64,000 nt of DNA. It comes from Candidatus Omnitrophota bacterium (GTDB lineage Bacteria; Omnitrophota; Gorgyraeia; Gygaellales; Profunditerraquicolaceae). This document shows, piece after piece, positions 24,301 through 45,300 of this stretch (position 1 is its first letter; each line of letters begins with the position of its first letter). The notes beneath the pieces are model-generated. The model was given only the letters and a program-made list of their open reading frames with translations. It had not been told where the DNA came from and did no database searches. Location: contig JAQUOD010000002.1 of assembly GCA_028717245.1 (NCBI GenBank), positions 12,772-76,771 on the forward strand, given 5' to 3'. Made by a program: the position numbers and the translations under genes.

Positions 24301-26411
24301 GGTATAGGGCTTTTAGAAAAAGATTGGACCACTTTAAAAGTCATTACCGCGCTCCAGTTGCTTTCCCCCTCGGTTTTTACTACCTTTACGCGCGCATAGT
24401 AATTCCCCGCCGTATCTAATTCGCTTAATTCGAGGGAATTAGAAGCCGATTCATAAGCTTTGGGGTTTTTAAAGTCAGCATCGGTAGAGATTTCTACTTT
24501 GTAATTTGTCGCCCCTGCTATTGCACTCCAATTTATCTTAGTAGTGCTTTGGAGCAGAGTATCATTAACCGCTTCTAATACGGGCGCGGTTATTGCAGGA
24601 GGAATAGGCGCAGGAGGAGTAGGCGGGTTGGGTGTTGGTGGTGGTGGGGTTGGGGGAATACCGCCTCCGCTACCACCAGAACCAGAAGTAGGTTGTTTGG
24701 GAGGAGGCGGCGGATTAACAACGTTAACGCTTAACTCACCCGTAGATGGATCCCGATTAATTTCTATGGTATTGCCGGTAGCAGGGTCTTTGTAGCTTTT
24801 ATCAGTCTCGCCGGGAGCTAAATCTATCTGGATTCCTTTAACTATTGCCCTTGCGCTGCCATCAGGATAAGCAGCGCGTGTGATAGTATCACCATTTACA
24901 TCCTTGGTAGAAGTATAGCCTAACCCTTTATTATTGCTGTAGGTAATATTGCCATTAGCGTCTATTTTAGTCTCGCTACGATAATCATCAGGGCCAACTG
25001 TTGTTTTTGTAATGCTGCCGTCGGGATGAGAGGTTGTTGTGGCCACGCTTCCGTCATCGCCATATGTTATCGTCGGCGTAGCGGTGCTACCACCGCTATT
25101 ACTGTTTACGCTCCTCTGTCCGCCTGTGGATGATATAGCTGGGGGTGTTGTTTGCGTTCCGCTTCCGTTAGAATTAACAATGGTAGTGGAATAACCACCA
25201 TTGCTATCGTAAGTGTTAGTTACGGTAGTGCCGGCTAAGGAACCGCCACTGCTTGCCGGATGATTATCCACAGTACTTGTAACCGCACCACCCGGGCTTG
25301 CATAGGTGATAGTCCTGGTGCTACCATCAGCATAGGTAGCAACGCCGGTATTGCCATTTCTCACAAGAGTTATGCCTCCGTTTGCCGCACCTGCGCCAAA
25401 AAGAGTTGTTGTCTCGCCATCCGAACCCCAAATTCCTTGCGTTTGACTGACGCTTAAGGCCTGGCCAATACCTGCCTCGGTGGTCAGGGCATATCCTATC
25501 CATTGGGCAGTGAATTCAGCTAATGATACGGTTTTTGTGATACTGTTATCTATATAGGTAATGCCTTCAACATCAATTCCGGTCACTACTACATAGTGGC
25601 CAAGGCCATTTCCTAAGTCTAAATGGGCAATTGCCGGTTGATTTAGATTTTTGAGGTCAGTAAGGGAGAGTTGGCTGGCGTAAAGATCCAAACCATATTC
25701 TTTGGCTACTTGCTGGATTCCATAGAGAGAGGTCTGGCCGTCTTGAGTATATAAGGCCAAGCTTTTAGCCAATATAGCGGAGTTGACATTAGACAAGAGT
25801 TGGGAGAGTGCGTAGACTGCGCAGTTCGGGATTGGAGGGCCGTGGTTATAAAGGTCAGCTTGGTACGTATTTATAACTGCTTTCTGTTCTTCGGGTTGAA
25901 TTCGTACGCTTTGGTTATTTTGGGGCTTTATGGCAGTGTCCTTATTTACCTGGCCATAAACTGGTATAGAATTTCCCTTTAGGCCCGCTACTAATTTGTC
26001 TTTTATGGGTTGAGGCTGGGTTTGCGGTGCAGGTGCGGATTGACTGGTGGCATCTATTGGTTTTACGGGTGTTTCTACGAAAACCGTATTATTTAAGTTA
26101 ACCGTTTGTTTGGCAGGTTTAAAGGATTGGGAATACGAAGCTGGCATAACGCCGGGATTATCATTCAAACAAGACGATATTTCCTCTGCATGCGCTAGGG
26201 GGACTATAAAAGAGGCTATTCCTTGGTAAATATTCCATAAAAAATCCCCCAATTTCGGTTGGGGGATTTGCGGGTAGCTAGTTTGCTCGGTTTGCGGCAG
26301 AGATATATGGTAGTCTGCTCTGGCTGCCCAGGTGACCTCGGAAAATAAAAACACTCCGGAAATAGTCAGGGCAACAATTTTTAACCACAATCTTTGACGT
26401 AAAGGATTCAT
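18351..26411 (-). CDS. giant RHS/Tc-toxin-like polymorphic toxin (~2686 aa): signal/TM, C39-like peptidase domain, Pro-rich linker, FN3, SpvB/TcaC N-terminal domain, FG-GAP/VCBS repeats, YD-repeat RHS shell, ...DPTGHW core end, Gly-rich hydrophobic + variable C-terminal toxin domain
   Basis: ORF track 18351..26435 starts at TTG; the ATG at 26411 (MNPLRQRLW) has a AAAGGGGA RBS; motifs NCAVYAL/GHYVVV (C39-like), DLNGDGL x6, many YD repeats, RYYDPQVGRFISADT...NPINAIDPTGHW. Confidence 0.85.
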   Translation of the reverse strand: MNPLRQRLWLKIVALTISGVFLFSEVTWAARADYHISLPQTEQTSYPQIPQPKLGDFLWNIYQGIASFIVPLAHAEEISSCLNDNPGVMPASYSQSFKPAKQTVNLNNTVFVETPVKPIDATSQSAPAPQTQPQPIKDKLVAGLKGNSIPVYGQVNKDTAIKPQNNQSVRIQPEEQKAVINTYQADLYNHGPPIPNCAVYALSQLLSNVNSAILAKSLALYTQDGQTSLYGIQQVAKEYGLDLYASQLSLTDLKNLNQPAIAHLDLGNGLGHYVVVTGIDVEGITYIDNSITKTVSLAEFTAQWIGYALTTEAGIGQALSVSQTQGIWGSDGETTTLFGAGAANGGITLVRNGNTGVATYADGSTRTITYASPGGAVTSTVDNHPASSGGSLAGTTVTNTYDSNGGYSTTIVNSNGSGTQTTPPAISSTGGQRSVNSNSGGSTATPTITYGDDGSVATTTSHPDGSITKTTVGPDDYRSETKIDANGNITYSNNKGLGYTSTKDVNGDTITRAAYPDGSARAIVKGIQIDLAPGETDKSYKDPATGNTIEINRDPSTGELSVNVVNPPPPPKQPTSGSGGSGGGIPPTPPPPTPNPPTPPAPIPPAITAPVLEAVNDTLLQSTTKINWSAIAGATNYKVEISTDADFKNPKAYESASNSLELSELDTAGNYYARVKVVKTEGESNWSAVMTFKVVQSFSKSPIPTELSDELSEEDYQEPVSADTASPDVPKSSNGLENLGVDLLTGQATFSIPVQTPAGRNGIEPHLALSYSSLKGNGLAGKGWDLDLGSIYRSTKGGVPDYNSSDAFIAQSQELISTGNNEYRAEIEGSFIKYVYDGASWQTTDKQGIKYFFGSTDNSRITTSKGIFSWALDKVMDLEGNYLTISYSKEENTLYPLNISYTANAQTQLAASYKVTFAYEPRPDTSLSYITGEPIKLLKRLKSIEVSFDNNLVRRYGLEYTQSPSTSRSLLTKVTEYGSDGQTAQPPLTFSYRSNSGAWSGDQPQWHIPDGDFIKSEQNQGRGLYDLNGDGLYDFIVSRYDPNESTDRQWLKATYLNSTQGFSSQPNWWPVPLGYFIYNTWDDGRRLVDLTGDGMPELLAAALWDPYLGSGGQYKDAYSFQYLDNIDPQWFKDTSWNLPEGYFVYGNHIDGGIRFADLNGDGLNDLSIAVDEIHWSYRPLDVISRTTTTYINTGSGWQQDARWNSPDGYYVTASGDNGRRLADVNGDGLADFLVAADGYKATYLNTGSGWVRNDAFNLPDGNFTENGVNQGRVLIDINADGLNDLLIAKDGYRATYLNTGSGWRRDDSFNITDGDFVDSQGRDQARYLTDLNGDGLMDICIAKDGYKKTYLNLSGPADLLVEVANGLGAKAKIEYTSSTQYENYYPNKTGKLPFSLQLVSRLTLEDNQGNSYPTTYFYKDGYFEPKEREFRGFSYVKVSDADGNYTESYFKQDNIYKGRLYEQEFKNKDGNLYSKIENVWQHTEIYPGVYFVYLSSADNFTYDGDASYKHARTEFEYDNYGNTTKVIYYGDVDIIEDDKTQTTEYAYNTSDWAIALPKRTSLLYNQQKVSEKRFYYDNTTDINQAPAKGLLTKEEAWLFNPLTSEEKYLATTFTYDSYGNLISTTDALGRTTTTEYDTQTYTYPIKATNVLGQTVKKTFDLKSGLVLTTTDLNNQTTTYVYDSLYRLIKAIGPNDTQDSPGVIYDYDLSNLPYRVTKKVKAENNNYLTSYSFYDGLGRLMQIKSPAEDDPQIQKARQIVSGRVTFDSRGNVREKYNAYYTFEVNDKPDTSDLTALAKFEFDYDPKGRLIKITKPEGTYAQTIYSDWKVTYIDENNHKKEEYFDAYARIVEVKEYNAAEVYTTHYEYNALDSLIKVVDNQKNTSQIFYDSLGRKIKMQDPDMGTWTYEYDAVGNLIKQTDAKGQILTFEYDALNRLTRKQGLIPSQGAVTEALAAYTYDDLTKENSIGRLSKVIDQSGSTEFFYDNLGREIKSVKGLSPQISNSIETKGTVPEQQYLVERTYDVLDRLTSLKYPDGEIISYEYNKAGQLKKVYSQTDSTVFVKNIDYAASGQTLKIEYGNGTTTYYRYLPNTSQISLIVTLNQNNNEVLQELRYTYDNSGNIIKIEDKVKDTTQAFQYDDLDRLIKASGEYGTLNYRYDSIGNLLEKEGIGYQYGARPHAPTQFGNTVISYDANGNLISKGSEQYQYDAENRLTQVNESGIITSFVYDGDGGRVVKTLTTNDQRLTTTYIGSLFEIDSDGTTRKHIFAGSNRVCTLTTNGQRLTTNYYHSDHLGSSSVISDSQGKATQTNSYKPYGGVAKVQGSDTAKYKFNGKELDATGLYFYGARYYDPQVGRFISADTLVARPYNPQELNRYSYCNNNPINAIDPTGHWSWKSFWKSIVGAFVGAVVAVVTAGAGLPWAVAGFWGGMTGGAVTGGLEGGWRGALIGAGIGGALGAFGGWGAYNIGTPFVVGMLATGAFVAGATNSWDSFAGGLVGGIAGTVVGTGINSYFHDPLSIQDPEGGVRNPAVRGKGVGTTPEKALRVANETGSRVIYTQSRGVAADIIRGGMQLLFKNSLASRQLAQYMLGHPGTTYRLHSEMTLTALGAAKMLQGNNIGGHFDLVSAFYSKGTAQSVFSDIGATLHWVPPHLADSAGMFTTFNPLTAPIYGILGALTLEYYHGYKTY
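25420..26411. repeat. inverted duplication arm 1 (5' ~1 kb of RHS gene), partner at 29291-30300
   Basis: ~85-90% nt identity when reverse-complemented, e.g. AAAATTGTTGCCCTGAC...GGGCAGCCAGAGCAGACTACC. Confidence 0.7.
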
Positions 26412-26464
26412 TTTGCTTGAGTCCCCTTTCGTCAATATAATTAAAACTCAAATAACTAATATAA

Positions 26465-26597: not shown

Positions 26598-28415
26598 TTA
26601 GATTTTAAGGCTATAACCCGTGGCTTTTTTGAGGCTGGCGAGAGAGGTTTGGTAATTACCCAGCGCCTGGATATATTTTGCCTGCGACTCCGAAAGATTA
26701 TACAGGGATTCCATCGCGCTAGAGAGGTTGGCTTCACCGACCATGGAACGGATCTTAATCACGTCTGTTTCATTGCGCCGGAATTTCATCTCCATCTCCG
26801 CGGTATTTAATTGCGAGATGGCCTTTTGGTAGTTAAAAAATGCCTCCTGGACCTCAAGGGTCACGGCCTTGGTAGTTTCATTAAAGTCGCTCAGGGAACG
26901 CCAGAGGTCTATCTCTGATTTTTTCTTATCCGATACGCGCTTAAGGTTATCCAGGACGCTGAAGTCCGCGCTGACCATTTGATACTTGCTGGGCTCGGCC
27001 TCGCCAAAGCGCGCCCTCTGTTTCTGGGCATTATAAGAAGTGCTGAAGGTGCTGCCTCCCCAGGGCTTGGTTAGCTTTACCCCGGCGAACCAGTTGTCCG
27101 TGTCTTCCCAGGGAGTATTGATATAATGCCCTTTGTAATACCCGTAAGAAGAGGTTAGGTCTATGCTGAAGGAATTTACGTCGCTGCGCTTCATCTTTTG
27201 GCTGTAGTCATTAAACTTTACCAGGAGCTCGCTTAAACGGATTTCCGGATGGTTAACCAGGGCCATCTCCGTGCAGGTAGATAATTCTAACTTTGTTTTT
27301 TTTGGCGCTGATAATCGCGGGGGCATAATATTGCCCAGTTCCTTGGTATTCAATACCTGCTTTAAGGTTAATTCCGCGTTCAAAACGTCTTGTTTTATGT
27401 TATCGGCCTGGAATTGTATTTGGTCAAACCAGGAACGCGCGCTATTTACTTCCAGGGGGATGACCATATCCGCCTGGCCTAATTTCTCTATTTTTCCCAG
27501 GGTCTCTTTCGCTTCCTCAAGAAGCGCCTCCTTGAGCCGCAGGTGCATCTTGGCCACGGCTAAATTATAATAGGCGGTTTCGGCCTTCTGCATCAATTCA
27601 AACTTAATGCGGTCATAATTTTTTTTGGTGATTTCCAAATCTACCCCTGCCTGCCTTACCGCATTCACTAATTGTCCTCCGCGAAAGAGCGGCTGGGTCA
27701 CTTCTACCGCAGGTTCCCATTCTTCGTAATCTACTTTATAGACATCGCCGTCTGTTTTATAGCCTGATATTTTTAGGGTAGGAAAGAGGTTGCGCTGGTT
27801 TTCCAGGATTTTAAACTGGGCCAATTCAATTTCCTGGCGCGCCACCTTAAGGGGCGGGTTGTTTTTTATGGCCAGGTCAACGAAATTATAGAGCGCCGGG
27901 TCAAGTTCCGCAGCGGCCCCTTTAAAATCTTCAGCCGACGTTTGCTTTTCTTCAACCGTTTCAGATAATCTTATAGGCTGCGTTAAATATGCCTGTTGTA
28001 AGGTCGGCATCTCTTGCGGTTCGCTCGGCTCTAAGGATTTATCCTGTTCGTAACTTATCGGCACAACCATCTCCAGTTCTTCCTTATTATAACCTTGGGG
28101 CAGGGGATAGGGGCTGGCGTCTTTTACGGCTAAGAGCGCCCCGGCATCCAGCAAGGGATAACCCGATGATTCCGCGATATTAATTTCTTTTATCCGGCCA
28201 CCCTGGTCCAGGGTGAACCTTACCTTTACCATGCCTTCCCAGCCTTTGGTTTGTGCCTCTTGCGGATAGACAAAACAAGCGCTTATTTTTTGCTGTATTG
28301 AGCTGATGTATTCGGGATTTAATAAAGCGGCCCGGGAGTAAGCGGGGTAGAGCAGGAGGAAGTTTATAAGAGCTATTATTCGGTATATTTTAACTATTTT
28401 ATGATCTATCTCCAT
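26598..28415 (-). CDS. outer membrane efflux protein (TolC-like) with N-terminal TonB_C-like domain
   Basis: TonB C-terminal signature ...GMVKVRFTLDQGGRIKEINIAESSGYPLLDAGALLAV...; then OEP/TolC-type repeats. Confidence 0.75.
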   Translation of the reverse strand: MEIDHKIVKIYRIIALINFLLLYPAYSRAALLNPEYISSIQQKISACFVYPQEAQTKGWEGMVKVRFTLDQGGRIKEINIAESSGYPLLDAGALLAVKDASPYPLPQGYNKEELEMVVPISYEQDKSLEPSEPQEMPTLQQAYLTQPIRLSETVEEKQTSAEDFKGAAAELDPALYNFVDLAIKNNPPLKVARQEIELAQFKILENQRNLFPTLKISGYKTDGDVYKVDYEEWEPAVEVTQPLFRGGQLVNAVRQAGVDLEITKKNYDRIKFELMQKAETAYYNLAVAKMHLRLKEALLEEAKETLGKIEKLGQADMVIPLEVNSARSWFDQIQFQADNIKQDVLNAELTLKQVLNTKELGNIMPPRLSAPKKTKLELSTCTEMALVNHPEIRLSELLVKFNDYSQKMKRSDVNSFSIDLTSSYGYYKGHYINTPWEDTDNWFAGVKLTKPWGGSTFSTSYNAQKQRARFGEAEPSKYQMVSADFSVLDNLKRVSDKKKSEIDLWRSLSDFNETTKAVTLEVQEAFFNYQKAISQLNTAEMEMKFRRNETDVIKIRSMVGEANLSSAMESLYNLSESQAKYIQALGNYQTSLASLKKATGYSLKI

Positions 28416-28728: not shown

Positions 28729-28734
28729 CTTAAC

Positions 28735-29277: not shown

Positions 29278-29290
29278 AAGCGAGGCTAAA

Positions 29291-30300
29291 TTGAGTAACT
29301 GGCGAGAAAAAATCTGGTTAAAAATTGTTGCCCTGACCATTGCCGGAGTATTTTTATTTTCCGAAACCACCTGGGCAGCCAGAGCAGACTACCGCGTATC
29401 TATGCCTGAAACCGAGCAAACAAGCTACCCGCAAGTCCCCCAACCGAAATTGGGGGATTTTTTATTGAATATTTATCACGAAATAGCCTCTTTTATAGTC
29501 CCTTCAGCTCAAGCGGCTGAAATAGCGCCTTGCGGTGTAGATAAAGTAACTAAGAATATGCCTGTCTTAAATCCCAATTCTAATTGGCAAAAAGCCAATC
29601 AAACCGTAGTTTTATCAGAAAATAAGGCAATTGATACGGTTGATACAGTTGATACGGTTAAAAATAGCTTAATTGAAGAAACTGGAGATATGAGAGTAGC
29701 TGAAGCTGAGCAGAAGCCGCAAGGAGATGCGCCAGCGCCAACCCCAACGGTTAAGGATTCCGCGCTTCCTGCCCAAGCTCAGCCGCCTCAAGGTTCCGAG
29801 ACTCCCTCTGTCCCCGTAGATTACACTAAGATTAATAATACCAACGATCAAACCGGCTTTATTCCGATTAAACAAGCTCAATTACCTCAAGAAACCGCAG
29901 CGATTACTTTACATAGCAAGGATCCGCCTAAGATGAGCTTCAACTGCGCAGTCTCCGCACTCTCTCAACTCTTGTCAGATGTCAACTCCGCTATATTGGC
30001 TAAAAGCCTGGCCTTATATACTCAAGACGGCCAGACCTCTCTCTATGGAATCCAGCAAGTAGCCAAAGAATATGGTTTGGATCTTTACGCCAGCCAACTC
30101 TCCCTTACTGACCTCAAAAATCTAAATCAACCCGCAATTGCCCATTTAGACTTAGGAAATGGCCTTGGCCACTATGTAGTAGTGACCGGAATTGATGTTG
30201 AAGGCATTACCTATATAGATAACAGTATCACAAAAACCGTATCATTAACTGAATTCACTGCCCAATGGACAGGATATACGCTTACTACCGAGGCAGGTAT
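29291..30300. repeat. inverted duplication arm 2 (5' ~1 kb of giant plus-strand gene)
   Basis: see arm 1; encodes same TM + Pro-rich + C39-like module. Confidence 0.7.
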
Positions 30301-33300
30301 TGGCCAGGCCTTAAACGTTGAGCAGAGCTATAGCATAAAAGGGGCAGTGCCTTCTTTAAGCTATTTTGCCGCACCAGACGGTAATCTATATCAGAGAACC
30401 GGTGTGGGTGAAAATGGCCAGATGCAGAGCGTGCTCTATCATGGCAGCCAGACTTCTTCCTTTGGGTATAAAGGCACAAATTATCAAACCACCATCTCTG
30501 CCAATCAAGGCACAATCACTTATTCCGGCTATTTCCTGGGTGAAGATGGTAACCTGTATAAGATACCTGATAACAATTCCGGTCCAATCCAAGGCAACTT
30601 ATATGAAGGAACCCAGTCCCAGCCTTTTGACTATAAAGGGGCTACCTATCAAACCACCATTTCTGCTAACCAGGGCACCATCACCTACTCCGGTTATTTC
30701 AAAAGCGAAGACGGCAACCTCTATAAGATAACCGGCGCAGATGATGACGGCCAAATCCAGGGTTCCCTTTATGATGGCGAGCAGAATTCTTCCTTTGAAT
30801 ACAAAGGCACTACCTATCAAACCACTATCTCTGCTAACCAAGGCGTAATTATTTATTCCGGTTATTTTAAGGGCGAGGATGAAAACCTCTATAAGATTAC
30901 CGGCACCAGCGATGACGGCCAAATCCAGGGCACGCTCTACGACGGCAGCCAGATAGATTCCTTTGAATATAAAGGCGCTACCTATCAGACCATTATTTCT
31001 GCCAACCAAGGCGCAATTACCTACTCCGGATATTTCAAAGGCGAAGACGAGAATCTCTATAGGATAACCGGCGCAGATGAGGAGGGTAAGATTCAGGGCT
31101 CATTCTATGACGGATTTCGCGTTCTTGAGACCTATACTTATGCGGGGCAAAGCTACCAGATAGAAATGACTGCCACCCAAGGCCAGATTACTTATTCTGG
31201 TTTTTTTGTGGGCAGCGATGGCAACCTCTATCAGGTAACCGGCGCTGACGCCTCTACCGGCAATATCCAGGGCACTCTCTATACCCCTTCTACTGAATTG
31301 AATTGCGCGGTTCAGTCCTTAAGCGTGCTCCTGCCTGATATAGGCTCTGCTACTTTAACCCAGGAACTTCTTCCTTATACGGTTAATGGCCAGACGTCTA
31401 TGTACGGCATCCAGCAGGTCGCCAGCAAATACGGCTTAAACCTTTATGCGGTAGAATTCTCCTTAGAAGAAATCCTGCAATTAGGAGAAGGCGCCATTGC
31501 CCATTTAGTGGTGGGTAGCAATCAGGGCCACTGGGTGGCGATTTATCCAGAAAAAGGTATTTATATTGATAATGGCATAGAGAAATCCCTTGATGCTTCA
31601 GAATTTGCTACTCAATTTAGCGGATATATCCTAACCGTCCAATCGGATATTGGCCTGGCCTTAACAAATGAACAGATGCAGGGCATACAAGGGAGTGAAG
31701 TAGAACACTGGGATTTTAGTACGGATACGCCAGGTCCATATGAATTGGGTGGAGGAGCAGATGAGGGCGGCGTTGATATTACGATAAATGATGATGGCTC
31801 GGCTACTTATACCTATCCTGATGGTAGCTCAAGGGACGCCACATTTGATTCAGATGGTAATCTTACGAGCACTACTGATCATGACAGCGATGGCACTACC
31901 ATAATTAATGTTTATGGTGACGTAGATATTGGTATAGATGGAGACGAAGACGTAGACATTAATATAAACCAAGGGGGCAATGGATATATTGCTGTGGCCG
32001 GCGGCAATGTGGATATTACTATAAATGCCGGCGGCAATTTATCAAGTTTTACTATGACCGGCGGTAATGCAACTATTACTGCAAATGCAGAAGCTACAGG
32101 ATATATCGCAGGAGTAAGCGGCGGCACGCTCAATATCACAGATAACGGAGGGGACACGAGTGATATATATATAAATTCTGATGGTTATACCGGCGGTGTT
32201 ATAACTGTAGACGATAATCCAATTTCACTACCACCAGGCACACCACTATCCTATGAACCCGATTCAGATACTCCTGGGGTGGGTTCTTCTTCTGTAGCAG
32301 GTTATAATTGCGCAGTTTACGCCCTCTTGCAATTCCTCCCAGGTATAGGCCTTACAGCTTTAGCGCAAAAAATCAACGTAGAAAATTATAAATACCAAAT
32401 AGAGGCATTTAACAAAATTATAAGTAGTGAAATTTTCTTTGAAGTAATCATCAGAGTGGCTTCTGATTACGCTTTAGACTTAAACGCGGTTAAACTTACC
32501 TTAGAAGGGCTTCAGCAAATAGCAGAGCCGGCAATCGTCCATTTAGACTTAGGGAATGGCCAGGGCCATTATATAGTGGTTACCCAAACCGCAGATAACA
32601 CAATTACCTACATAGATAATGAGATCATCAAGACTGTATCAGAGGATGATTTTACGGCCCTCTGGACAGGATACGCCTTAATTACTCAACCAAATAATAT
32701 AGGAGAAGTTTTGGCCCTTCAGGAGATACTGAACATAAAAGGCGCTACGGTAACTATCGGAGGCCGTCGTGTTGGCGGCAGTAGTAGTAAAGGCAGCAGT
32801 AATTCAGGCGGCGGTAATACAACTGCTGGAGGCGGCAGCACTACTCAGCCCGCACAATCCCCTTCAATAGTCTCAGGCCCGCCAATGCCGCAAAGTTTAA
32901 AAGAATATCAAGATTTAAATAAAACTTTTCTCAATACCGACAAATATACTTATCAATATGACCGCAGCAAAGATATGCTAACCGTATACGACCATACAGA
33001 CCCCTCTAATGTTACAGCTATTATGGTTTATTATGATGCTACAGTTAGATCTGGGGATAAGCTCGTTGATGCTACTATTACCATAACAGTAGGTGGAGGA
33101 TCTCTTGTTGGCGGTGCCAAACCTACTTCTCCGGTTACGGTTATTGATGAGCCCGGTAAGGGTCCGTGGGTAGTTGATTTAACTGAAGTCTCTGATGGTT
33201 CACGGGTAACATATAATTTTATCGAAGGGACGACAACTACAATAACAGGTTCAGGAGGGCAAGATAATTCAACTATGGTTATAGATGATTGGAAAACAGG

Positions 33301-36300
33301 GCAAAAAACCACGCTTGACTATCAATGGAATCCTAGCCACGGGCAACAGCCTGTTAAGGCAACCGTAGTTAATGGCGGTACTACAATTGAGTACAATTAT
33401 AATATCTGGGGGCAGGTAGAGACGGTGCATACGGTAAATATAGATTCGTTGGGCCATATCGTTACTGATACAACACAGAACCCTAACGGCTTTTTCGTTT
33501 CCGAAGAGCCGCAAACTATTAACGGAATAACTTATAATGTCGCTTTAGATGACGATTACTATGGCCGTAACGCCGGGCAAGTCTTAGAATACAAAAATGA
33601 TAAGGGAGAGAAGTGCACCCAGATTTATGAGACGCTTTATATTGAGGGGAATATATTCACTGCTGTCCCTACTGAGTTTAGCGTAGTAGAGAACGGGATG
33701 TTGAAATATAGGGCAAATGCTACAGATTTTAGTGTGTATAAGGACGCAAGCGGAAATATAAATTTGAAGGTTGGGAAGAAAAACGTATGGGAGCATGTTT
33801 CTCCCTCCAACGACGGCTATCCTGGCTATCCTATTGTATATACTACTGATGCGCAAAATAAAATATTATCCATTGATATGGTTTTTGGGAGTAAGCCCGA
33901 GTTTACCAAAGTTGGCGCACAAGATATCTATACCAGCACAAACGGCTATGTGGTTGTAGAAAATGGTGAAATAAAAGACATAAATATTCTTAAACAAGTT
34001 GCGCAGCCTCAAAAAGATAATGGTGAGGTTTCAGCACCCAGCGTTAACCTCTCAGGCGAGCCGTATTCTGCTCAATGCTTTAGTGATTTTATCGGTGCTG
34101 GAATTTCCGATAAGAAATCTACGCCCACACCAACGCCTTCTCCAACGCCAACACCGACAGCTACACCGGCTCCGGCCCTATCTCCGACTCCAACTATAAC
34201 AGGTGGCGCATCTTCGCCTTCACCTCTTCAGCTAGTTATCGATACTTTTGCAGAAATAATCACTTTGGGAGGAGCTCAGACTCAAACCTATAATAGCAAC
34301 TGCGCGGCAAATGCTTTGAGCGTTGTCTTACCGGAAATAAACCCTTCCCTAAACGGAATAGATACTTATACCCTCTACAACCAACTCACTCCTTACACAG
34401 ACCAGCATAAGCAAACCTCTGAATACGGAATCCAGCAGATAGCTGCTAGCTATGGCGTAAAGCTTGATGCCACCAAAATAGATTATAATGGGCTAAGAAA
34501 TCTGGGGACACCTGCTGTAGCCCACCTTCAGCTTGATGAGGGTCAGGGACATTGGGTTGCGGTTAACCCTGAAAATGGTGTTTACACAGATAACGGCGCG
34601 ATTAATCCTTTAAATTCAGCAGAATTTAGCGAACATTTTGACGGTATTATTTTAGCCTCTACGCCTACCCGAGGCCCTCCGGTGAGTGTTGAAGAAACCC
34701 AAAACATAATGGGTGGTTTTGATTTTGGCAATGTGTTTTCTGGAGTTATTGGTGGAGTTTCCGGAGCAATAGGAGGCTTGATTTCCGGGTATGGCAATGG
34801 AGGAATTACTGGGGCAATTAATGGTGCAATTACCGGATGGCAAGCAGGATATAACGCAGGCAGTTCTACCGGAGTTTTTCAAGCCCCCAGCGCAGGATAT
34901 ACTGCAGGGCAACAATCTACAAACAGCCAACCTGTAACTAATTCAGCTACAATTCCAACTACAATAAATAATGGTTCATCCGGTGGCGTCGGTAGTTTAG
35001 GTTCTCTTCCGATTTTCCTCGCTATTGGTGCGCCTCTAACCATTCCTGCAAATAATCCCCCTCCCGCTGGCGCAGGAACTGGATTTTTAGATGACCCATT
35101 AGGTTGGTTGAATGACAATGCGCTTCAACCAGTGGGTAATTTCCTTACCAGAATCTTTGAACGGCAAGGGGAAGCTATGCTCGTTGAGGCCGAAGCGCAA
35201 ATGGCCGCAGGAAAGGCTATAGGTAATGCTATAGGTGATTACTTCGCTTCGGTGCAAAAATATGAATTGATGCAGCAAGAAAACGAAATATTGATGGCTG
35301 GGTTGATTGCAGACGTATTCACTCCGGATAAAGATTTTGATAAGATTGGGGCTGCGCAGGCGGCTCTAAGCGATGCTGATAAACTCATACAGGAGCACAT
35401 AGAAAATAACGGATATTTTAATACTTATGGAGACTTAGGAAAATATCTTTCAGATTTTATGGCTGACCGCGGTATCCCTGCTAATACCCAAGGGCCGCAG
35501 GACCAATCTGCAGCGCAGAAAGCTCTTGTTGATGCCTTGATAAATAAAGGCGTGGTCGATTTGGAAGAAATAGCAGGAATATCAACCACAGATATAAATA
35601 AATTATCCAAAAAGGACAGGGATACAATAATTGCTTGGGTCGGGGAAAAAGATAGTGAGATTGAAATAAGTAAAATAAATACTTGTTTGGAAGCCATAGG
35701 CATAGGTTTAGATAGTAATGGTAAATATGCGGTTACAGATACAGCTAAACTTCAAGATTCCCTGAGTTATCAAGGTGCGCAATACGTCACAAATTATTTT
35801 CCTTCATTTCTGACTCTCTTTTTGGAACCGACGGACACTGGTTTGGCTGCGCCTGCCAAGATATCCGGCGGAGAAGAAGCAAAAGCTAAATTGGCAGATT
35901 TACTGGGCGGGCTTAATTCCGATATTATAATGGATACAGCAGGTTTAAGCCTTAAAGAAAGAGAAACATACGGGCCTTTATTAAGTCAGTTAAAAGATAG
36001 CCCGGAAAATATTTCTATCAACTCTAAAGATTATATCACGCTTTTAGTTTTGGCGTGTAAATTTGTGGAGGGCGTAGAGGATAAAGCAGGAGTAAAGCCG
36101 GTTAACTCAATTTATACTAACCAGCCTGCGCCGTTGCCTGTGCCCGGGTCTCAGCCAGAGTTCGTCGGCCGAAATTCTTATAGCTGGGAAGTTATTGATA
36201 AAGATAAATTTGAGGCATTCAAAAAGGAAGTCGCTGAGGTTGAGGGATACGAATTCAAACGCAACTCTAACCTCATTAGCTCTTTACCCGAAGATATCAA

Positions 36301-39300
36301 GAAGAGCCTGGGTTTAACCAATGATGAAGGCAGACTTAATATTTTATCTTTTTCCTTAGACCCAGATGGGGCAACTGCTAAAATAAAACAGGCCTTATCT
36401 AAATATTCCGAATATTTTGGTATTAAGGTAGATAATATTGCCGCGCTTGACCTTTCCAGCCTTTACCCGCAATTAAAGGAGGTCAATGATAAGCTTGAGC
36501 TTTATTTAGGACCAACTAGGAAGGACGATGGAACATATATTTATGATTCGGATTCGGCTAAATTAGAAGATTTCCGCGATGTTATTGCCGGTAACCAAGA
36601 AATTAACCGCAGCCTTAGGCTGATTAGCTTTTTATCTGGAGAGGAACCCAAAGGTAATCTTTTAACATTAGCTTTAGACCCGGCAGAGGTAAGCCCCGAG
36701 ATAAAGCAGGCCTTAATTAAATATTTTGGTATTAATGTAGATAATATTGCTGCTGCTGATATTTCCGGCCTTACCCAGAAATTAAAGGATGCCAATGATA
36801 AGCTGGAGCTCTATTCGGGAACAACCATGCAGGCGGATAAAACATATATTTATGATTCGGCTAAATTAGAAGATTTCCGCAATGTTATTGCAGCAAGAGA
36901 AGAAATCAAGCGCACATACAGCCTTATTAACTCTTTATCCGAAGATAAAGATAGCCTTTTGTCCTCAGAGGGTTTAAACCCAGTGGGGGTAACTGCTGAA
37001 GCAAGGCAGCTTTTAGCCAAATACGGTTTTAATAATGTCAGTAATATTGCTGTTGTTGACTTAGCCGATTTAGCCTTAGACCCGGCAGAGGTAACTGCCG
37101 AAATAAAACAGGCTTTAGCCAAGCAGAACATTAATGTAGATAATATTGTTGCGCTTGACCTGCCCAGCCTTACCCGGCAATTAAAGGAAGCCAATGATAA
37201 GTTTGAGACTGATTTAGGGGCAATCAGGCAGGATGATGGGGCATATGTCTTTGATCAGATTAAATTAGAGGATTTTAGGGCGAATTATGAGACTGAAAAA
37301 TGGGCAGAAACCGTAGAATGCATTCAGAAGGCCTCGGTATTATCCACCGCTGTTGGGGTAGCCCTCTTTGAATTTAATGCCGCCAACTATGGCAATGGAA
37401 AGGAAGGCGTATACGAGGCCTATCAGAAAGTTTCTTTATTATCCACCGCTGTTCGGGTAGCCCTCTTTGAATTTAATGCCGCCAACTATGGCAATGGAAA
37501 GGAAGGCGTATACGAGGCCTATCAGAAGGCTTCGGTATTATCCACCGTTGCTCAGGCAGCAGTATCTTTCACGACAGCAGGCCAGCTGATTACTTTTTCT
37601 CAGATACTTGAGCCCCTGGCAACCACGGCTTTTAGAGAAACAACAAGGAAAGCCGTTGAGGATTTTGAGGCAGTAAAACTTTATAGCCAGGCAGTGCAAA
37701 ACGCTTTTATAAGCCAAAGAGGTAGCTTTAGTTATGCCTGGGAGAATTTGAAGTATGTTTTGGCAGGAGCAAACCCAGTAGTAGTTGTGGCGGCTGCCGT
37801 GGCTTTTGTTGCGATAGCAGTAGTACTACATGTTACAGTGCCTTTATTGATTACAGCTGGTTTAACCGGAGCTGGCGCAGGGGCATTTATTTGGAATGAA
37901 CGGGGTCCTGCAAAGAATTGGTCTCTACTGGAACGGATAGGTGCCACCATTGGTGCTGCTGCATTGGTACCTCTAATGGCATTGACTTCTGTGTCTGTGG
38001 CCCCCGCCGCTGCAGCCGCAGCAACTAACATCGCACCTCTTACAACAGCGTTAATGTTAATAAATTCTGGCCTGCAAGTTGCAGCTTGGGGTATACCCAT
38101 AAGATTTGCGATAGCGGCTGCGGAAGGAAGAGAGATAACCTTTGGGGGGTTTGTTAAAGATTTAGGTATAGATTTTGTGATTGGAGTTGCCTTTTTTGGG
38201 GTGCAGAGAATTTTAGGCCTTTTATCTGCTAATTTAAGTTCTACAAGTTGGATAGTACGTTTATTAAAGGTCTTATTTTACCCTACGGGAATCAAAGAGA
38301 TTGCTTTGTCGAGCGTAGCCAGGGGATTGATTGGCGCTGGAGCAGCATATATGTTCTCTCCTATACTCGGAGAAGGCGATTTATGGTCAATAGAGAATCT
38401 TGAGGCTTTTGGTTATACTTTTGCCTTTCTTGCGTTGGCTAATTTTGCTATCTTAGGGATTGACGGTTTATTAGTAGCTAAGGGTTGGGGCGCGCTGCCG
38501 CTTAGAGCTGGTTTACATATCGGCCTTGCCTATGCCAATTTTACTTTTGTCATAAATTCAGCCCAGCACAGCGGGGGTTATACATATGCCCTCGGAGACA
38601 AACTTGCTTTTTATGGTTCACAGTTTGGATGGGGATTTTTAGCCGGTTTTATTGGGGTTTCCATAGCTTCTTTAATAGGGGTAGAGAAGGTAGTCAGGTT
38701 TCTTAAGTCTGCGTTCATCGGCAAGGGGAGATTTTTTACTTGGCCGCTTCTTGGCGAAGGAATAAGCCTTGGCGCAAGTAAGGTGCTTAATCGCGAATGG
38801 AAACCTGGATGGGGAGTTTTAGCAGGATTAGGATTAGTTTTATTAAAGCCGGTGGTTTTCTTATCTCCCGCCACATCCGCCTCTACGCTTATTAAGGTGG
38901 CGAGGTGGTTCTTAGTGGGTGGGGGTAGATTTCTTACTTGGCCGGTTATCAGCGTATTCATCAATAATGCCTTTCTTGGCGGCGACCCAATATTAGCTGG
39001 TTTAATCGGGCTTAATTTGGCTTTCTTGCCGTCATTGGGTAGTAAGGGGTTGCTAAGCTTAAGGCCTGCGGGTTGGATGGCGGCTGTGCGTTCAATTGCC
39101 GGTTGGGCATTTCTGGGAGGAATTAATCGCCTTACATTTAACTATTACTGGGATTTGAATTGGGGCGCTCAGAAAGGCGGTTGGGATGGGTTCTGGGGAT
39201 ATGTCTGGCAAAGAGGCGGTTCTCAGGCATTTATTGAAGGGGCTTATCAGCTCGCAATAGCGCGGCTGGCAATTTTGATAGGCCGCTCCTTATACCCCAA

Positions 39301-42300
39301 GAGCCCTTCTTCTTTTTCTCTGGGATATTTTCTCACCCAAAGCTTACTGGTTATTGGGCCAGCAGTATTTATTCTGGCAGAATTTGTCTGCCTTCCTCTT
39401 TACCCTCCCTTAGCTATGTTAAAGATATCGGGCAACATAGCCAGGACTGAAAAGTTAAAAGGGGATACACTAAACGATATAGAAAAGAAAGAGGCTGAAA
39501 TAAAAGGAACAGGCATAAGCGATGATGAGTTGAAGGCAATGAAGTTAGGGCTCGCTGAAATCGAGATTGGACTTAACGACCTCAAGAACGTTGATTTAAA
39601 GAACTTTAACGATTTAATGAGCCAAAAGTATCTTGATTATTTACGGCCAGATGCTTGGGATATACTGCGTTACCCGGCTATAGGCCTTGCCTTAAATTTC
39701 ACTTGGTTATTAGTGAAGGCCTTGGGTAAGGCTGCAGGAAGCAAGGTATTTGAGGCCAAGGGTTTGGGGGAGGGTTTAAAAATTGGGGCAGAAGAGTCGT
39801 TACTAAAATTGAGAGCTTTAGTGGGAATTGCGGAAGTAGATCCAGAGACTTTAGCGAAACTCACGGAAGTAGGGCGGCTTATTACACAAGTTAAAACAGC
39901 CAGCTCCTTATACCAATTAATGTTTTGGATTCCTTTTGTCCGGCCGGGAATTGAGATAGCCTCGCATGGTTTTAATCTATTTTTTAAATCTGAATTTGGC
40001 CAGGCATGCTTAGGAAAAGGATTAACAGAATTCTTAATAGATACGTTGGGAGAATTTGACCCGGCAAACATAGCTACAGGAAGAAGCCCCCTTACAAATC
40101 AACTTATGCCTGGTATTAATGGTTGGGATGCGTTGTGGAGCGAGGGTATATCTATGGGGGCAAGGGCCCTGGTGAGAGAGGCATTTGCTGATCCTTGGGG
40201 TTCGTTTTACGGCGTATTCTTCTTTATCGGCGGGCCTATGTTAGAGAAGGCCTTAACAAACCTAAAGTTTGCTGATATAGGCAAACAGGTTTATACATTT
40301 GGTAATGTTGCTAAGGGTGTGGAGAATATATTTGGAAAAGACTCTGCTATAACGCGCTATTTTATGGCCCCTGTGGCAGAAGAATGTGTCTTTGAACAAT
40401 TAATATCTCCCTTGACAGGCGCTTTAGCGCTTCCTGTTCTTGTTATTTTTGGCCCTGAGGCTTATATGTGGTTCAAAGAAGGACTTGAGGAGATTGTTTT
40501 TCCAGACGGCAACGTGAGCGGGGTAAATGTTGACAGCGCTTCAATTCTTTATGACCATTTAGGAAGAAGAGTAGGAGAAGATATAGATTCTCGTGGGAAT
40601 CCTATTAAGCAGTCCAGAGTTCTTTATGGCCCCGATGGAAGAATCTTGATCGCTGGGACAGAAGGAGTAAAAGCTCCTTCAGGAAGCGCAAGAGCAATTC
40701 CTGAACCGAGCAAGCCAAGGATTACAGTAAATAGTGCAGGAATAAACAACATAGAAATACCAATTTCCGGAAATGGATACAATCCTTCTGTAATAATAGA
40801 GGATCCTTTGAATCCGTCTTCAGTAATAGTGATTCCTGTTAATATGTTAAGAGCGAATGGTATTGGTACAAGCATAATTCCAGATGGCCCTCCACAACGT
40901 ATCCTGTTACCTCTGCTTGATTATGAGCGGTTTCGTAAGGTGATAGAATCAAGAGAGGCGGAGGAAGTAAATTCTTCGCCCGAGGTATTTGAGTTAGGTT
41001 CCAAATATAATCCAGCCACCAAAGTCCTTGAGCCAGTCCTCATCCCAGTAGAAACAATTCTTTCTGCAGTCCCCTCCCAAAATAGCGAACTAAAACCGAC
41101 CGGTATATTTCTTAATAATGGAAATAAAGAAGGGCCTATTGCCGTAAGAGAAGGCAGTAATGTCGCGCTAAAATCAGATAAATATCTGATTGTCTTTAAT
41201 GAGGTAAGGCCTTCCGGAACAGCCCAAGTCCAGGAAGCAAAAGGATTAATTGGGCAAATCGAGGGAATCATTCGGCGTAACAATGGCGAGCTTGATATTG
41301 ATAAATGGAAAGATCAGCAAACAGCGATAAAAGCACTTTTGAATGAGCGCATAGTTGCCTTAAGGAATGCCGGAGGCAAGACCTTGATTACCGTGGTAGT
41401 TGGTGCTGAGTTAGCAAGAAATGGAAAATACCCAACTATTTTTGTTCTTAATGGCGATGCAACTGTTCCATACACAGAAGGAGGGCCCGCTAACGTAATA
41501 AATGTAGTTTATAAAGATGTTGCCAAAGAACTGGGAGCAACTGATATGGTTAATCTGGATTCTCTAATACAAGCTTATGAAAAGGCGATAAAGGATAATG
41601 ATCCAGCAGGAGCTAAATCCATCGCGGAGCAAATAGAAAGAGCGCTTAGAGACCCTAAAACAATCGTTGTTGTTTCCATAGATGCACGCGGGCATTTACC
41701 TAATAAATTTGATTGGCATAAAGGAATACGGGAAGCCTTAGAATTGAGAAAGGAAGGCTGGAGAATTCTCGATGAGGTAGATGATCTTTTACTCAGAGAG
41801 AACCAATACATTATTTCTCAGGATAGCCTTGTAAAGGATAGCCATATTCTAAGAGACATAGCAAGTAAATCAGAAGAGCTTTTTAAAGATATAAATCTTC
41901 AGGGTGACGAAACAGGCTTGACAGGTAAAGGCCCGCTCATAAGAAAAGCCAAGAGCCAGAGGGAATTTGAGTCTTTAGCAAGGCAAGGCGAAATGGTTTA
42001 CTATCGAGGCCAACCCAGAGGCAACAGCGTTATTGCCGGAGAAGATTTTCTCCTTAGTTGGCCTGTATTCGCACATTATATAGAACAAGGATATGTGCCG
42101 AATTTAGTCTACGATGTTGCCAAGGGAAAGGTTCATGAAATTGGGAGCCTCTCAGGCTTAACCCCTGATAGGGGCAAGGGTGAAATGGTGCCTACGTTTA
42201 AAGGCGGAGAAGCCCAGCCTGATATGCTGTCAGAAAGCCTTGCTTATAAGGTTGCCCAGACACTGAAATATAATTTAACAATAGGTAAAGATAGCCCCTT

Positions 42301-45300
42301 CAAATTAGATAATATAAGGGCCTCTACAAAGACAGTAAGGGAGAATCCAATCCAAGAGATGTTTGAGGGCGGCGGCCCAATTATTGGCCTTTCTGCAACT
42401 AAATCCGGTGCTGAGAAGATAATGCTTGCTAAAACCGGAGCATCTGGAATAGAAGAAATAGGGCTACAAAGCAATATTAGTGAGATGATAGGGGCAAGGG
42501 AGGTGCGAGTGGAGAAAGATACGGGGATTTCGAGATTAATTGATTTAGCCGTTGAAGCCGTTGAAGGCAGAGGGTTAATTGATTTAGCCACCGGAGCCGC
42601 TATCGAAGGCAAGCGAGGCGTTTTAATTGAAATAGATAACCCTACATGTTTAGATAGGGTTTTTAAAGAACTGCAAAATTCAGAGAAGTTAAAAGGAAGG
42701 CAAGTAGATGCCATTAAAGGAGATACGCCAGTTGATAAAATTGATGAATTACGTAAAAAAATAGGGCCGGAAGCACGTATAGTAGTAGCTCTGCCAAGAG
42801 TGGCAAAGCAGTGGAGTTTTAAGGGAAACCTTGATGTGATAATTTATGGAGCTGAGGGTTGGACATGGGATTTCCTTACCCACGGCATAAACAGAAACTG
42901 TAGAGACTCTGGGGCGGTAGGAAACAAGATAGTCATTGTTAATGAGGAAAGATTAAATGAGACCCTTGCCTACTTAAAAGAAAACCTTTCTTTATACAGG
43001 GATTATTCGGATGATGAAGCTAAAGATTTACAAAATTTAGTTAAAAATAAGATAACCGATACAAAAGATATTCTTTCTCTGTCATTAGAAGACAGGCTTC
43101 TTTTAAATGCAGATTTTCTTCAGATTGTGCAAACTTCTTCTTCCCATAAGAGCGCCATTCTTACTATCTTTAGAAATACCAGATCAACCGCGCCATTACA
43201 GAAATTATTTGATGACGCCGGTCTAACTCCCGAGGAAAGAGAGGTTATCGAGGAAGTAAGAACAAAGGAGAGAAGCGGCCTTTATGGTTTAATCCAAAGA
43301 TTAAATGACGAGCCGCTTTCAGGCGTAGAATGGGTAAGGGTAGTTTCGCAACAGAGCTGGGAATCAGCAATAAAGATGTGGGATGACCTTTTGAGTTCTA
43401 AAGGATTAAGTGAAATGACACTGCAGAAGGTTCAGGAACTGAAAGAATTTGCCCAAAGCAGTAAAGAACATGAGAAAAAAGATTTCGGAAAGATACTGCC
43501 TTCTAGATATGGATTAAATCAAGTGCCTGTGAATCACGATTCAGTCTTAGGAGTTGCTAAATATTTAGGGGAGGATATTCTTCCTTCAAGAATTGTTGAC
43601 TTCTTCGCTTCCACACCAACTGCTACTCAAGTAGCAGGATCCGTAGGTGTTAATAAGGCTCCACCCAAGACAGCAGAAGAATTTGTTAACCAATATTTTG
43701 CTAATCTATCCCCTCAAGAAAAATCCGCTGTAAAGGAATATTTAAACGATCCCCAAAATGATTTTGCCCTCGGTAATGGAAACCTGAATACTCGCGGAAG
43801 ATTATTCGCTGCCCTGATAGATAAAATACTTAGTCTGCCCGGAGAAGAAATAGCCAGCCTGCAGGCAATAGGGATAATCCCTGCTAATGCCGGCGGGATT
43901 AAGCTTTCTACAATAGAGACATTCGAATTAGTAAAGGCAATATTTGAAAGTGGATTAGAAGCGGATTTAGATTGGTTAATTTCGGCAGGTAGAGTGATTA
44001 AAGCTTTCGGGAACAATCTTCAGCCGATTACTTTTGAGAAAATAAAAGAGTTACAAAAAGAATTTCCTGCCTTAGCCAGATTCATCTTAGCAAATATTGA
44101 CCAGAGCAAGCCTGAGGGTAAAGAGCTATATCAGAAATGGGATGCCATAGTAACACGTCAGGAGAAGGCAAATAAGAAATATAAGCAAGATATTTCTAAG
44201 CTTAACAACCCATCTTTACCTTCAGCAGTAAGAATTATGATGCTTAAACGTGCCTCTGAAGCTATGGAGAAGGCTTGTATTAGCGTTAAGGAAGCCAGAG
44301 AGATAAACAATGACCTCGGTGTAGTTGCGGCTTTACTTGGCCTGATTAACACACCAAAAGCACTTGATGAATTTAATAAAGCTTATAAAGACTTGGTGGA
44401 GGTACCCAACATAGAAAAGGAAAAAATTGATAATGTTTCGCTTGCTACTTTAGCAAAATTAGTAAACGGCGAAACCAAGCTCGTTGACTTTATTATATCC
44501 ATAGGCAAAGAAGGTCTTTTTGATGCAGCCTGCGATGTAAGGAATGTTCTTGGCGTAATAGAGAAGCTTACAAAAGTAAAAGGGATTTGGAACTGGGGTG
44601 AAAAAATTACTCAAGAAGCGGTGAATAAATATGCTGAAAAATTTACCAAAGGCGATACAAAGAAGGCAGAGGCTGAACTGAAGAAATTAGCCGCTGATTT
44701 AGAAAAAGATATTAAATCTTTGCAAGAGAAATTAAAGGGCTGGAATCCGCAAGAAGGAATTACAATGAAAGTTATCCAGGAGATAGCTAAGATTGATAAT
44801 CTAGATTCGAATGATGCAGATCTGAAGGTAGTTTATATTCTCTTCTTAGGTCTTGCGACTACCGATGAAGAAATTGCAAAGATAAAAAAGAATGCCGAAA
44901 TCGCCGCTTCGCTTAAGGGAATATATCTGGTAATTACGGAGACGGATGGAAGGGTAGAGTTTGTAGATGTTGAGCCAAAAGATGGTAAAGTAAAAATTGG
45001 CGATAAAGAGTTAGGGGTTAAGGAATTCTATCCAATGGAGTCCCTGCCGCTAAATATTTTAAGAAATATAAAGCTTTTCGGCCATATTGCTCAAGGCGAA
45101 ACAATTACTTTGGGTGAAGGAGCCAACCAAATAACACTTACTCCTTACCAAAAAGAAGCTAATTGGAAAGTAGTAGCAGAAGGCGGGAAATTAGATTATC
45201 AAAGATTTGATGCGGGGACTGAATTTGAAGATAAAGCAACAGGTGATATCTGGCAGCCTACTGAACAAGGGTTTAGGATAGTCCAGACTATGGATGGCCT

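Follow-up and report, generated by a model that had tools for sequence, protein, structure and literature searches.

Giant genes, as found in Omnitrophota and in uncultured bacteria related to them, are among the largest known, and whether they give a single polypeptide or a processed one is an open question, which is addressed here for a locus of a Candidatus Omnitrophota bacterium. The stretch of DNA analysed (hereafter, the window) comprises 64,000 nucleotides (nt) of contig JAQUOD010000002.1 of the assembly GCA_028717245.1, positions 12,772 to 76,771 of the forward strand. A single stop-free frame of 11,582 codons extends from nt 29255 to the window end, and the N-terminal part of this giant open reading frame (ORF) contains four peptidase domains of the C39 family, each followed by a double-glycine (GG) leader motif. 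Each such cassette is interpreted as a self-cleaving maturation module, in which the C39 domain would be combined in cis with its own double-glycine leader and would cut after amino acids (aa) 364, 814, 1164 and 1821, respectively (residue 1 is at nt 29255). A probability of roughly 0.6 is assigned to this reading, which was derived from sequence comparison and structural models; its inferred parts are that cleavage happens, that it happens in cis, and the cellular compartment.

The likely start of the giant ORF is the TTG codon at 29291, which is preceded by a GAGG ribosome-binding site and agrees with the N-terminus of the closest relative, P0002. The ORF and its four peptidase domains are listed below, with scores for Pfam Peptidase_C39 (PF03412; MEROPS C39; gathering score 22 bits), limits according to a family hidden Markov model (HMM) and mean confidence (pLDDT) of AlphaFold (AF2) models.

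29291..64000, + strand: giant ORF, likely TTG start, exits at the window end; at least 11,570 aa; four C39 cassettes within the first ~1,820 residues
29924..30304, + strand: C39 domain 1 (D1), C231/H306/D322; Pfam 64.1 bits, E 1.5e-17; family-HMM limits aa 224-362 (nt 29924-30340); ComA alignment; AF2 pLDDT 82.8; Foldseek matches PCAT1/ComA/LahT150
31283..31654, + strand: C39 domain 2 (D2), C684/H759/D772; Pfam 35.0 bits, E 1.5e-08; family-HMM limits aa 677-812 (nt 31283-31690)
32288..32704, + strand: C39 domain 3 (D3), C1019/H1105/D1121; 11-residue insertion; Pfam 50.6 bits, E 2.2e-13; family-HMM limits aa 1012-1162 (nt 32288-32740)
34277..34675, + strand: C39 domain 4 (D4), C1683/H1766/D1779; Pfam 32.6 bits, E 8e-08; family-HMM limits aa 1675-1818 (nt 34277-34708); AF2 pLDDT 79.4

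An earlier note on this DNA had described four tandem C39-like domains in the giant ORF, each with Cys and His motifs, separated by repeat modules and Gly/Ser-rich linkers, and had proposed to examine them by a Pfam HMM search, by structure prediction with superposition and by a search for GG motifs at module boundaries. The description was borne out. Four separate stretches of the ORF match PF03412 above the gathering score, at coordinates agreeing within about 40 nt with those given in the note, and the motifs N-C-A, G-H-(Y/W) and (I/T)-D-N are invariant across D1-D4. In a phmmer search against solved structures ComA (8hf7) was the best sequence match, and Cys, His and Asp fall on C17/H96/D112 of ComA; the same three residues are invariant in all five C39 copies of the window, namely, D1-D4 and a copy in a neighbouring Rhs/Tc-toxin-like ORF. 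Only 10 Cys residues are present in aa 1-2800 of the giant, and the catalytic ones are 4 of these. The regions between the C39 copies are represented by five repeats of ~60 residues, an Asp/Gly/Asn-rich stretch and a region of ~450 residues flanked by Gly/Ser- and Pro/Thr-rich linkers; no Pfam domain match was obtained for these modules. Since the identity of the other copies to D1 is merely 38-50%, D1-D4 are old diverged duplicates, and an assembly or duplication artefact was rejected.

The AF2 models of D1 and D4 have a core with confidence mostly above 86-88, and the top matches found by Foldseek in the PDB are 7n87, 8vp5, 5xe9, 3k8u and 6mpz, the peptidase domains of PCAT1, ComA and LahT150 (E 1e-6 to 2e-5; TM score 0.69-0.77, target-length-normalised, for isolated-domain entries), followed by the C39 toxin StbD-CT (8ssk) and, more weakly (E ~1e-3), by the C39-like domain (CLD) of HlyB (3zua). 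The predicted papain-like fold matches that of catalytic C39 domains, the catalytic residues align, and D1-D4 are genuine C39 domains with complete triads. The possibility of non-catalytic CLDs of the HlyB type, which bind or chaperone an unfolded substrate in secretion without proteolysis, was raised for giant proteins by West-Roberts et al. (bioRxiv 10.1101/2023.11.21.568195), and it agrees with the presence of the HlyB domain among the fold matches and with the absence of the canonical Gln from three of the four copies. It is highly improbable for this locus: CLDs are devoid of the catalytic Cys, while Cys, His and Asp are retained in all window copies; of the 204 domain hits in the family, 129 have the complete set, and the majority of the remainder are alignments truncated at the N-terminus; and active peptidase (PEP) domains match better than CLD structures (E about 1e-6 versus 1e-3). 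The identification of D1-D4 as CLDs was rejected on these grounds. No dedicated family for these C39 domains was found in NCBIfam, where the models of PCAT transporters match the peptidase part alone and far below their cutoffs.

Downstream of the C39 domains, the following motifs were found, scored with a position weight matrix (PWM) that was trained on relatives only; P1 is the last residue before the predicted cut.

30311..30346, + strand: motif 1, LNVEQSYSIKGA, followed by V; PWM 15.7; predicted cut after aa 364
31661..31696, + strand: motif 2, LTNEQMQGIQGS, followed by E; PWM 20.9; predicted cut after aa 814
32711..32746, + strand: motif 3, LALQEILNIKGA, followed by T; PWM 22.0, the best of the window; predicted cut after aa 1164
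34682..34717, + strand: motif 4, VSVEETQNIMGG, followed by F; PWM 15.3; predicted cut after aa 1821
25422..25457, - strand: motif of the Rhs/Tc-like ORF, LSVSQTQGIWGS, followed by D; PWM 21.6; predicted cut after aa 338 of that ORF

The canonical double-glycine leader motif, L-[ST]-x-x-[EQ]-[ML]-x-x-[ILV]-[KR]-G-[AGS], is thus present after four of four giant C39 domains, at the module boundaries where the earlier note had suggested looking. The spacing between the catalytic Asp and P1 is 42-43 residues in all four copies, and the P2-P1 endings are GA, GS, GA and GG for motifs 1-4. Among about 11,570 positions of the giant the four sites rank 1-4 by PWM score; in a six-frame scan of the 64 kb only six positions score ≥10, of which the five highest each follow one of the five C39 domains and the sixth follows a weakly C39-like stretch, considered below. 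The pairing of domains and motifs is one to one, with no orphan motifs in the window.

The same motif was found in relatives. In 51 non-window sequences P12 is Leu (44/51), P11 Ser/Thr (34/51), P8 Glu/Gln (35/51), P7 Met/Leu/Ala, P4 Ile/Leu/Val/Thr (51/51), P3 Lys/Arg, P2 Gly (45/51) and P1 Ala/Gly/Ser (43/51), with no conservation from P1' onward; these sequences were picked by an HMM spanning the tail P14-P3, so that P2 and P1 lie outside it. With a strict regular expression the motif was detected after 61 of 165 domains, and in 43 of these the offset is identical; windows of equal size in other parts of the same proteins give a background of 0.008 each. The leaders cut by C39 enzymes end in GG, GA or GS and have the consensus Leu(-12)-X3-Glu(-8)-Leu(-7); in the co-crystal of LahT150, leader residues -4 to -11 form a two-turn helix, and residues -4, -7 and -12 lie in a hydrophobic groove (PMC6363468). 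Judged by its sequence, the downstream motif is equal to this experimentally defined C39 recognition sequence. The AF2 models of D1 and D4 predict a helical segment from P10 to P5 and a strand from P3 to P1, in the same register in both, and the modelled tail takes the same register as the leader peptide bound to LahT150. For the 10-residue block over most of the tail the mean pLDDT is 96 in D1 (aa 351-360) and 73-75 in D4, and in both models confidence collapses a few residues past the predicted cut site.

In the proposed mechanism, each C39 domain and the ~14 residues following it would act as one unit, a peptidase fused to its own leader substrate. The domain would fold, the downstream amphipathic helix (P12 Leu, P8 Glu/Gln, P7 Met/Leu, P4 Ile) would pack into the leader-binding groove of the same domain, the extended K/R-G-[AGS] segment would enter the active site, and the Cys-His-Asp triad would cut after the small P1 residue. 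The expected products, aa 42-364, 365-814, 815-1164 and 1165-1821 (about 320-660 aa), would each end in their own peptidase, leaving a membrane-embedded body of >9,700 aa. Such cleavage may free the cargo from an N-terminal anchor for passage via an adjacent TolC-like channel. The earlier note had considered both autoprocessing of a polyprotein and the cutting of a target; because the GG motif follows every C39 copy, autoprocessing is favoured, and target cutting has become the less favoured of the two.

An exhaustive profile search among 1.84 billion representative proteins gave 1,635 hits with E ≤ 1e-3, of which 113 reach E ≤ 1e-10. This divergent family was missed by a word-index protein search, in which the N-terminal module had no match at E ≤ 1e-3. 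Many of the best matches are proteins of 2,000-7,800 residues, or their fragments, with C39 some hundreds of residues behind the N-terminus. When C39 copies were counted in the 150 closest cluster representatives, 106 had one copy, 42 had two and 3 had three; the giant, with its four copies, has the highest number. Relatives named ‘cysteine peptidase family C39 domain-containing protein’ are labelled as coming from Ca. Gorgyraea atricola and from metagenome-assembled genomes (MAGs) of Ca. Omnitrophota, the PVC group and Elusimicrobiota; a relative on one 9.8-kb contig is labelled Woesearchaeota. Among GTDB species representatives, the nearest loci were found in a MAG labelled ‘uncultured Planctomycetales’ (57% identity) and in a Ca. 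Omnitrophota MAG.

The relatives that have lost the catalytic Cys bear on the proposed cleavage. In P0003, a copy with Cys, ‘VINCAVEAL’, is followed by ‘...KTKGA’ before E, and its near-identical duplicate with Cys replaced by Ser, ‘IINSAVEAL’, is followed by ‘...ELRGT’ before I; in a clade of Cys-less first copies the string behind the domain is ‘...NTKGT’ before FF. The pair in P0003 can be regarded as a natural experiment, in which P1 appears to drift to Thr where Cys is lost. The persistence of a recognisable motif (P1 = Thr) behind Cys-less copies, beside an active copy, would also be expected if the same GG sites were cut in trans, i.e., if one C39 copy, of the same or another molecule, cut behind the others as in viral polyproteins, with the several copies giving redundancy or ordered processing. 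Four active-looking copies in one chain, as well as the fact that separate substrates are the normal targets of the C39 domains in ABC exporters (PMC6363468), speak for this possibility. It is nevertheless unlikely, as neither the fixed Asp-P1 spacing nor the strict one-to-one pairing is necessary for cleavage in trans; proteins with a single C39 copy, among them the Rhs/Tc-like ORF and those of L001 and L002, have the same layout of C39 followed by the motif; AF2 models the tail confidently with its own domain; and processing of StbD-CT was shown in cis (bioRxiv 10.64898/2026.05.07.723447).

The drift of P1 to Thr also bears on another explanation, according to which the motif is an uncleaved pseudo-substrate that caps or auto-inhibits the peptidase, the real function of which would be to cut other proteins at Gly-Gly, such as surface proteins of prey or host, or GG-leader peptides that are secreted, in relation to Tox-PL-C39 toxins. 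C39 toxin domains are known in polymorphic toxins (PMC3482391), StbD-CT cleaves GyrB and ParE at Gly-Gly (bioRxiv 10.64898/2026.05.07.723447), giant proteins of Omnitrophota are suspected predation factors (bioRxiv 10.1101/2023.11.21.568195), and some Cys-bearing copies in relatives are without the downstream motif. On the other hand, the residues at P2 (Gly) and P1 (Ala/Gly/Ser) are precisely those that allow cleavage, with a drift to Thr where Cys is lost; the domains are N-terminal, beside a signal sequence, and not at the C-terminal position of a toxin; there is no adjacent immunity-like gene; very different cargoes stand behind the same cassette; and the 64-kb window contains no other GG-leader candidate. 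A capping role of the motif, with target cutting as the real function, is therefore quite unlikely. The identification of the domains as Tox-PL-C39 toxins was rejected, since they are N-terminal and repeated and no immunity-like neighbour was identified.

Several observations weigh against self-cleavage in cis. The sixth residue before the catalytic Cys, usually Gln in C39 enzymes, is Gln only in D4; it is Pro in D1 and D2, Ser in D3 and Gly in the Rhs/Tc copy. This Gln was proposed as the oxyanion-hole residue; in LahT150 it is 4.3 Å from the oxyanion, and the need for it has been questioned (PMC6363468). In the family Gln at -6 is not conserved, and Asn stands directly before Cys in 116 domain hits. 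In one clade, with ‘MLDWQ’-type leaders, Cys is retained in the second C39 copies but no GG motif follows them, so that a C39 domain can have another role. The conservation at P14-P3 is inflated, because the HMM used for selection included these positions; the AF2 alignments were shallow, with only five paralogous sequences, and the contact of the tail with the active site is deduced solely from predicted secondary structure and confidence. Export of the domains would require the catalytic Cys to function under oxidising conditions, whereas the domains of ABC exporters face the cytoplasm. Finally, no biochemical or proteomic evidence of cleavage was found for the giant or any relative.

The cross-tabulation of Cys presence against motif presence in 175 domain hits (88 / 47 / 14 / 26) was not used as a test, because it is confounded by proteins of ~400 aa and by inaccurate positions. 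A separate family of ~400 residues (P0032, P0034, P0043, P0050 and others) contains two C39-like domains with a transmembrane segment behind each; its second copy is often without Cys and it lacks a double-glycine motif. This family is unrelated to the cassette and was caught by the same profile.

The N-terminus of the giant, ahead of the first C39 domain, is represented by a leader common to the Rhs/Tc-like ORF and 27 relatives.

29291..29377, + strand: signal-like N-terminal leader of the giant, (M)SNWREKIWLKIVALTIAGVFLFSETTWA, followed by A

From its sequence pattern, the segment SNWREKIWLKIVALTIAGVFLFSETTWA is read as a probable Sec signal with a cleavage site. The pattern K-x-W-x-K-x-(I/V)-A ... 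W-A was found in the 27 relatives, and the full consensus, (N/D)W(R/Q)xKxW(I/V/F)K(I/V)(I/V)A...F...(E/D)(I/V)(T/A/S)WA(A/M)x(D/N)(F/Y), was observed in the giant (29291-29377, +), in the Rhs/Tc-like ORF (26349-26414, -) and in the same relatives. None of the family models matches the leader. Being conserved beyond an ordinary Sec signal peptide, it may be a dedicated targeting signal. A hydrophobic segment is present at aa 20-38, with no further strong transmembrane segment before aa 2832 and dozens after it. The C39 domains of the giant are probably extracytoplasmic, because they lie behind the Sec-like signal.

The second cassette-bearing gene of the window is divergent from the giant and occupies 18351-26435 (-); it encodes 2,694 aa with Pfam matches to C39, fn3, SpvB, FG-GAP, TcdB_toxin_midN and RHS repeats, and is therefore regarded as an Rhs/Tc-toxin-like protein. 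Between the two genes lies a gene for a TolC-like outer-membrane factor.

25464..25841, - strand: paralogous C39 domain of the Rhs/Tc-like ORF, C205/H280/D296; Pfam 57 bits; protein 91% identical to D1
26598..28415, - strand: TonB_C and OEP (TolC-like outer-membrane factor) gene by Pfam, between the two cassette-bearing genes

In the Rhs/Tc-like ORF (2,694 aa) the C39 domain spans aa 199-324 and precedes the RHS repeats, and the first ~340 residues of this protein are approximately a copy of the giant N-terminus, leader included (18351-26435 (-) versus 29291-30346 (+)). In the DNA this is seen as an inverted repeat, the C39 part of which (25450-25826 / 29942-30318, 377 nt) is 97% complementary and the leader part of which (26170-26414 / 29288-29532, 245 nt) is 84% complementary; because of this difference, the sequences suggest recent gene conversion between the peptidase segments of the two genes. 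The cargoes behind the cassette are the giant and the Rhs/Tc toxin in the window and, in relatives, subtilisin, Hint domain and YD-repeat proteins. Since the same cassette heads the Rhs/Tc-like ORF and unrelated cargoes, it is read as a portable, cargo-independent export and maturation module rather than as a weapon aimed at a target.

The product of the TonB_C-OEP gene may be the outer-membrane exit channel. The fusion, with TonB_C at the N-terminus, is unusual, and the same fusion, in the same position and divergent arrangement, is present in the related locus L001. The locus of the Planctomycetales-labelled MAG shares with the window the leader, the divergent TonB_C-OEP gene and the synteny. 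Between the OEP gene and a riboswitch upstream of the giant there is a small basic ORF (~28700-29010, +), which starts with MRCKICQNEF, contains CSQPECQKQ and is zinc-ribbon-like. Two RND pumps with a HlyD-type adaptor are encoded at 6700-14677; an IS200/Y1 transposase gene (16065-16739, -) stands between them and the Rhs/Tc operon, and a tRNA gene is located at 6474-6548 (+).

The riboswitch, located at 29165-29251 (+), is of the cyclic di-GMP (c-di-GMP)-I class (best Rfam match RF03167 c-di-GMP-I-GGC, gathering score 59, 73.9 bits, E 1.2e-15); some 40 nt separate it from the likely TTG start of the giant downstream, and a T-run follows it. Expression of the giant is probably under c-di-GMP control. 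A GGDEF response regulator is encoded at 2773-3705 (-). In L001, the closest GTDB locus, a c-di-GMP-I riboswitch (8240-8340, +; RF01051, 58.4 bits) is directly upstream of the gene with the leader and C39, and two tandem c-di-GMP-I-GGC aptamers (4654-4761 and 4903-5029, -) precede YD-repeat genes downstream of the TonB_C-OEP gene. The arrangement of riboswitch, TonB_C-OEP gene and leader-C39 gene, being present in the window and in L001, is conserved in two genomes.

Taken as a whole, the leader, C39 domain and GG motif might constitute an undescribed, widespread and autonomous ‘cis-leader-peptidase’ secretion and maturation module of Omnitrophota and PVC-type bacteria, a PCAT peptidase moved into the cargo. 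Together with the KxWxKxIA...WA leader and the TonB_C-TolC-like channel, it would free giant surface proteins and Rhs/Tc toxins from an inner-membrane anchor and chop the N-terminal region into separately acting secreted proteins, under the control of c-di-GMP riboswitches. This broader interpretation is offered tentatively and is considered doubtful.

In the remaining part of the giant, a possible fifth module was found.

48338..48838 (aa ~6362-6528), + strand: possible degenerate fifth C39-like module, C6366, H6450, D6467, then EELSKKEIESIKGK, followed by V; P1 = Lys

It contains the strings ‘VHCVVSF’, ‘GEYHFVQ’ and ‘VLDNE’ and then the leader-like ‘LSKKEIESIKGK’ with Lys at P1. The family HMM gives a domain E of 0.0055, and by PWM score the site is number five of the giant and number six of the window; Pfam gives no match, and the hhalign probability is 2%. 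Two weak signals thus coincide at this place, and a fifth C39 module at aa ~6362-6528, being weakly supported, is kept as a weak lead. Among the transmembrane segments of the body a match to Peptidase_M50 (site-2 protease; 40.4 bits) is embedded at 55200-55800 (+), aa ~8650-8850, with the HExxH motif ‘LHELAHS’, and near aa 7350-7410 there is a marginal match to FHA; both count as additional enzymatic modules of the giant's body. The region aa ~4039-4176 contains ‘NAGGKT’, which is Walker A-like, and a ‘DEVDD’ box; Pfam gave no domain for the putative SecA-like ATPase.

The features of the giant very probably place it among the giant Omnitrophota proteins with N-terminal C39 (‘Archaeovorins’ and related). 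Full-length giant Omnitrophota genes carry N-terminal C39 domains next to signal peptides, which might cleave the giants or other substrates (West-Roberts et al. 2023, bioRxiv 10.1101/2023.11.21.568195), and a 2026 preprint contains a 24-protein cluster of PF03412 architecture in which cleavage is unmentioned (bioRxiv 10.64898/2026.06.07.730766). The giant multi-transmembrane ORF and the N-terminal C39 beside a signal peptide (here, aa 20-38 and C39 from aa 224) are shared, and, because N-terminal C39 domains in giants were reported by West-Roberts et al., the bare finding of C39 is another member of a known architecture. These reports give no cleavage motif, fixed spacing or cis model, which are added here; in a literature search that did not cover all journals, no earlier account was found, for these proteins, of either the downstream GG motif or a cis model. 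Omnitrophota giants were also reported with SecA DEAD-like and preprotein-binding domains; SecA_DEAD gave no Pfam match at E ≤ 1 in the window part of the giant ORF, which continues beyond the window.

Self-cleavage by the cassettes leads to falsifiable predictions at the level of residues, namely, four cut sites in the giant and one in the Rhs/Tc toxin, and the consensus motif is searchable in every relative and in metaproteomes. If true, this would be the first case found of a C39 peptidase with its own canonical double-glycine leader in cis; such a cassette bears on the evolution of leader-peptidase systems and may offer a compact self-cleaving tag. If the cassettes are inactive, the finding would be one more example of a reported domain architecture.

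The logic of a built-in protease that frees modules of a very large secreted protein is shared with the cysteine protease domain (C80) of MARTX and TcdB. It is also shared with the releasing peptidases of polymorphic toxins (PMC3482391). Both differ from the cassette in family and recognition, C39 reading a helical double-glycine leader. Closer to the cassette is StbD-CT, a CdiA-like C39 peptidase toxin of Citrobacter rodentium (PDB 8ssk), which auto-processes in cis at a Gly-Gly site (bioRxiv 10.64898/2026.05.07.723447): a C39 domain in a large secreted protein, the structural match and cis GG processing in a flanking linker are common to both. In StbD-CT, however, the GG site is N-terminal to the peptidase, which is a C-terminal toxin with an immunity protein and also cuts topoisomerases, while in the giant the predicted site is C-terminal with a full leader-type helix, and the cassette is N-terminal and repeated.

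With the PCAT/AMS proteins (ComA, PCAT1 and LahT) the giant shares the Pfam family, the papain-like fold, the triad residue for residue, and the substrate motif (Leu-12, Glu-8, Leu-7, hydrophobic -4, Gly-2, Gly/Ala/Ser-1), with helix and strand predicted alike. A PCAT/AMS ABC exporter was rejected as an identity, no Pfam match to ABC_membrane or ABC_tran having been found in the giant ORF or its neighbours. Unlike in those exporters, the peptidase here is part of the exported protein, precedes its own leader motif, occurs one to four times per protein and lies behind a Sec-like signal, with Asn directly before Cys and without conservation of Gln at -6. New here is the placement of a C39 leader peptidase in the cargo together with its own leader.

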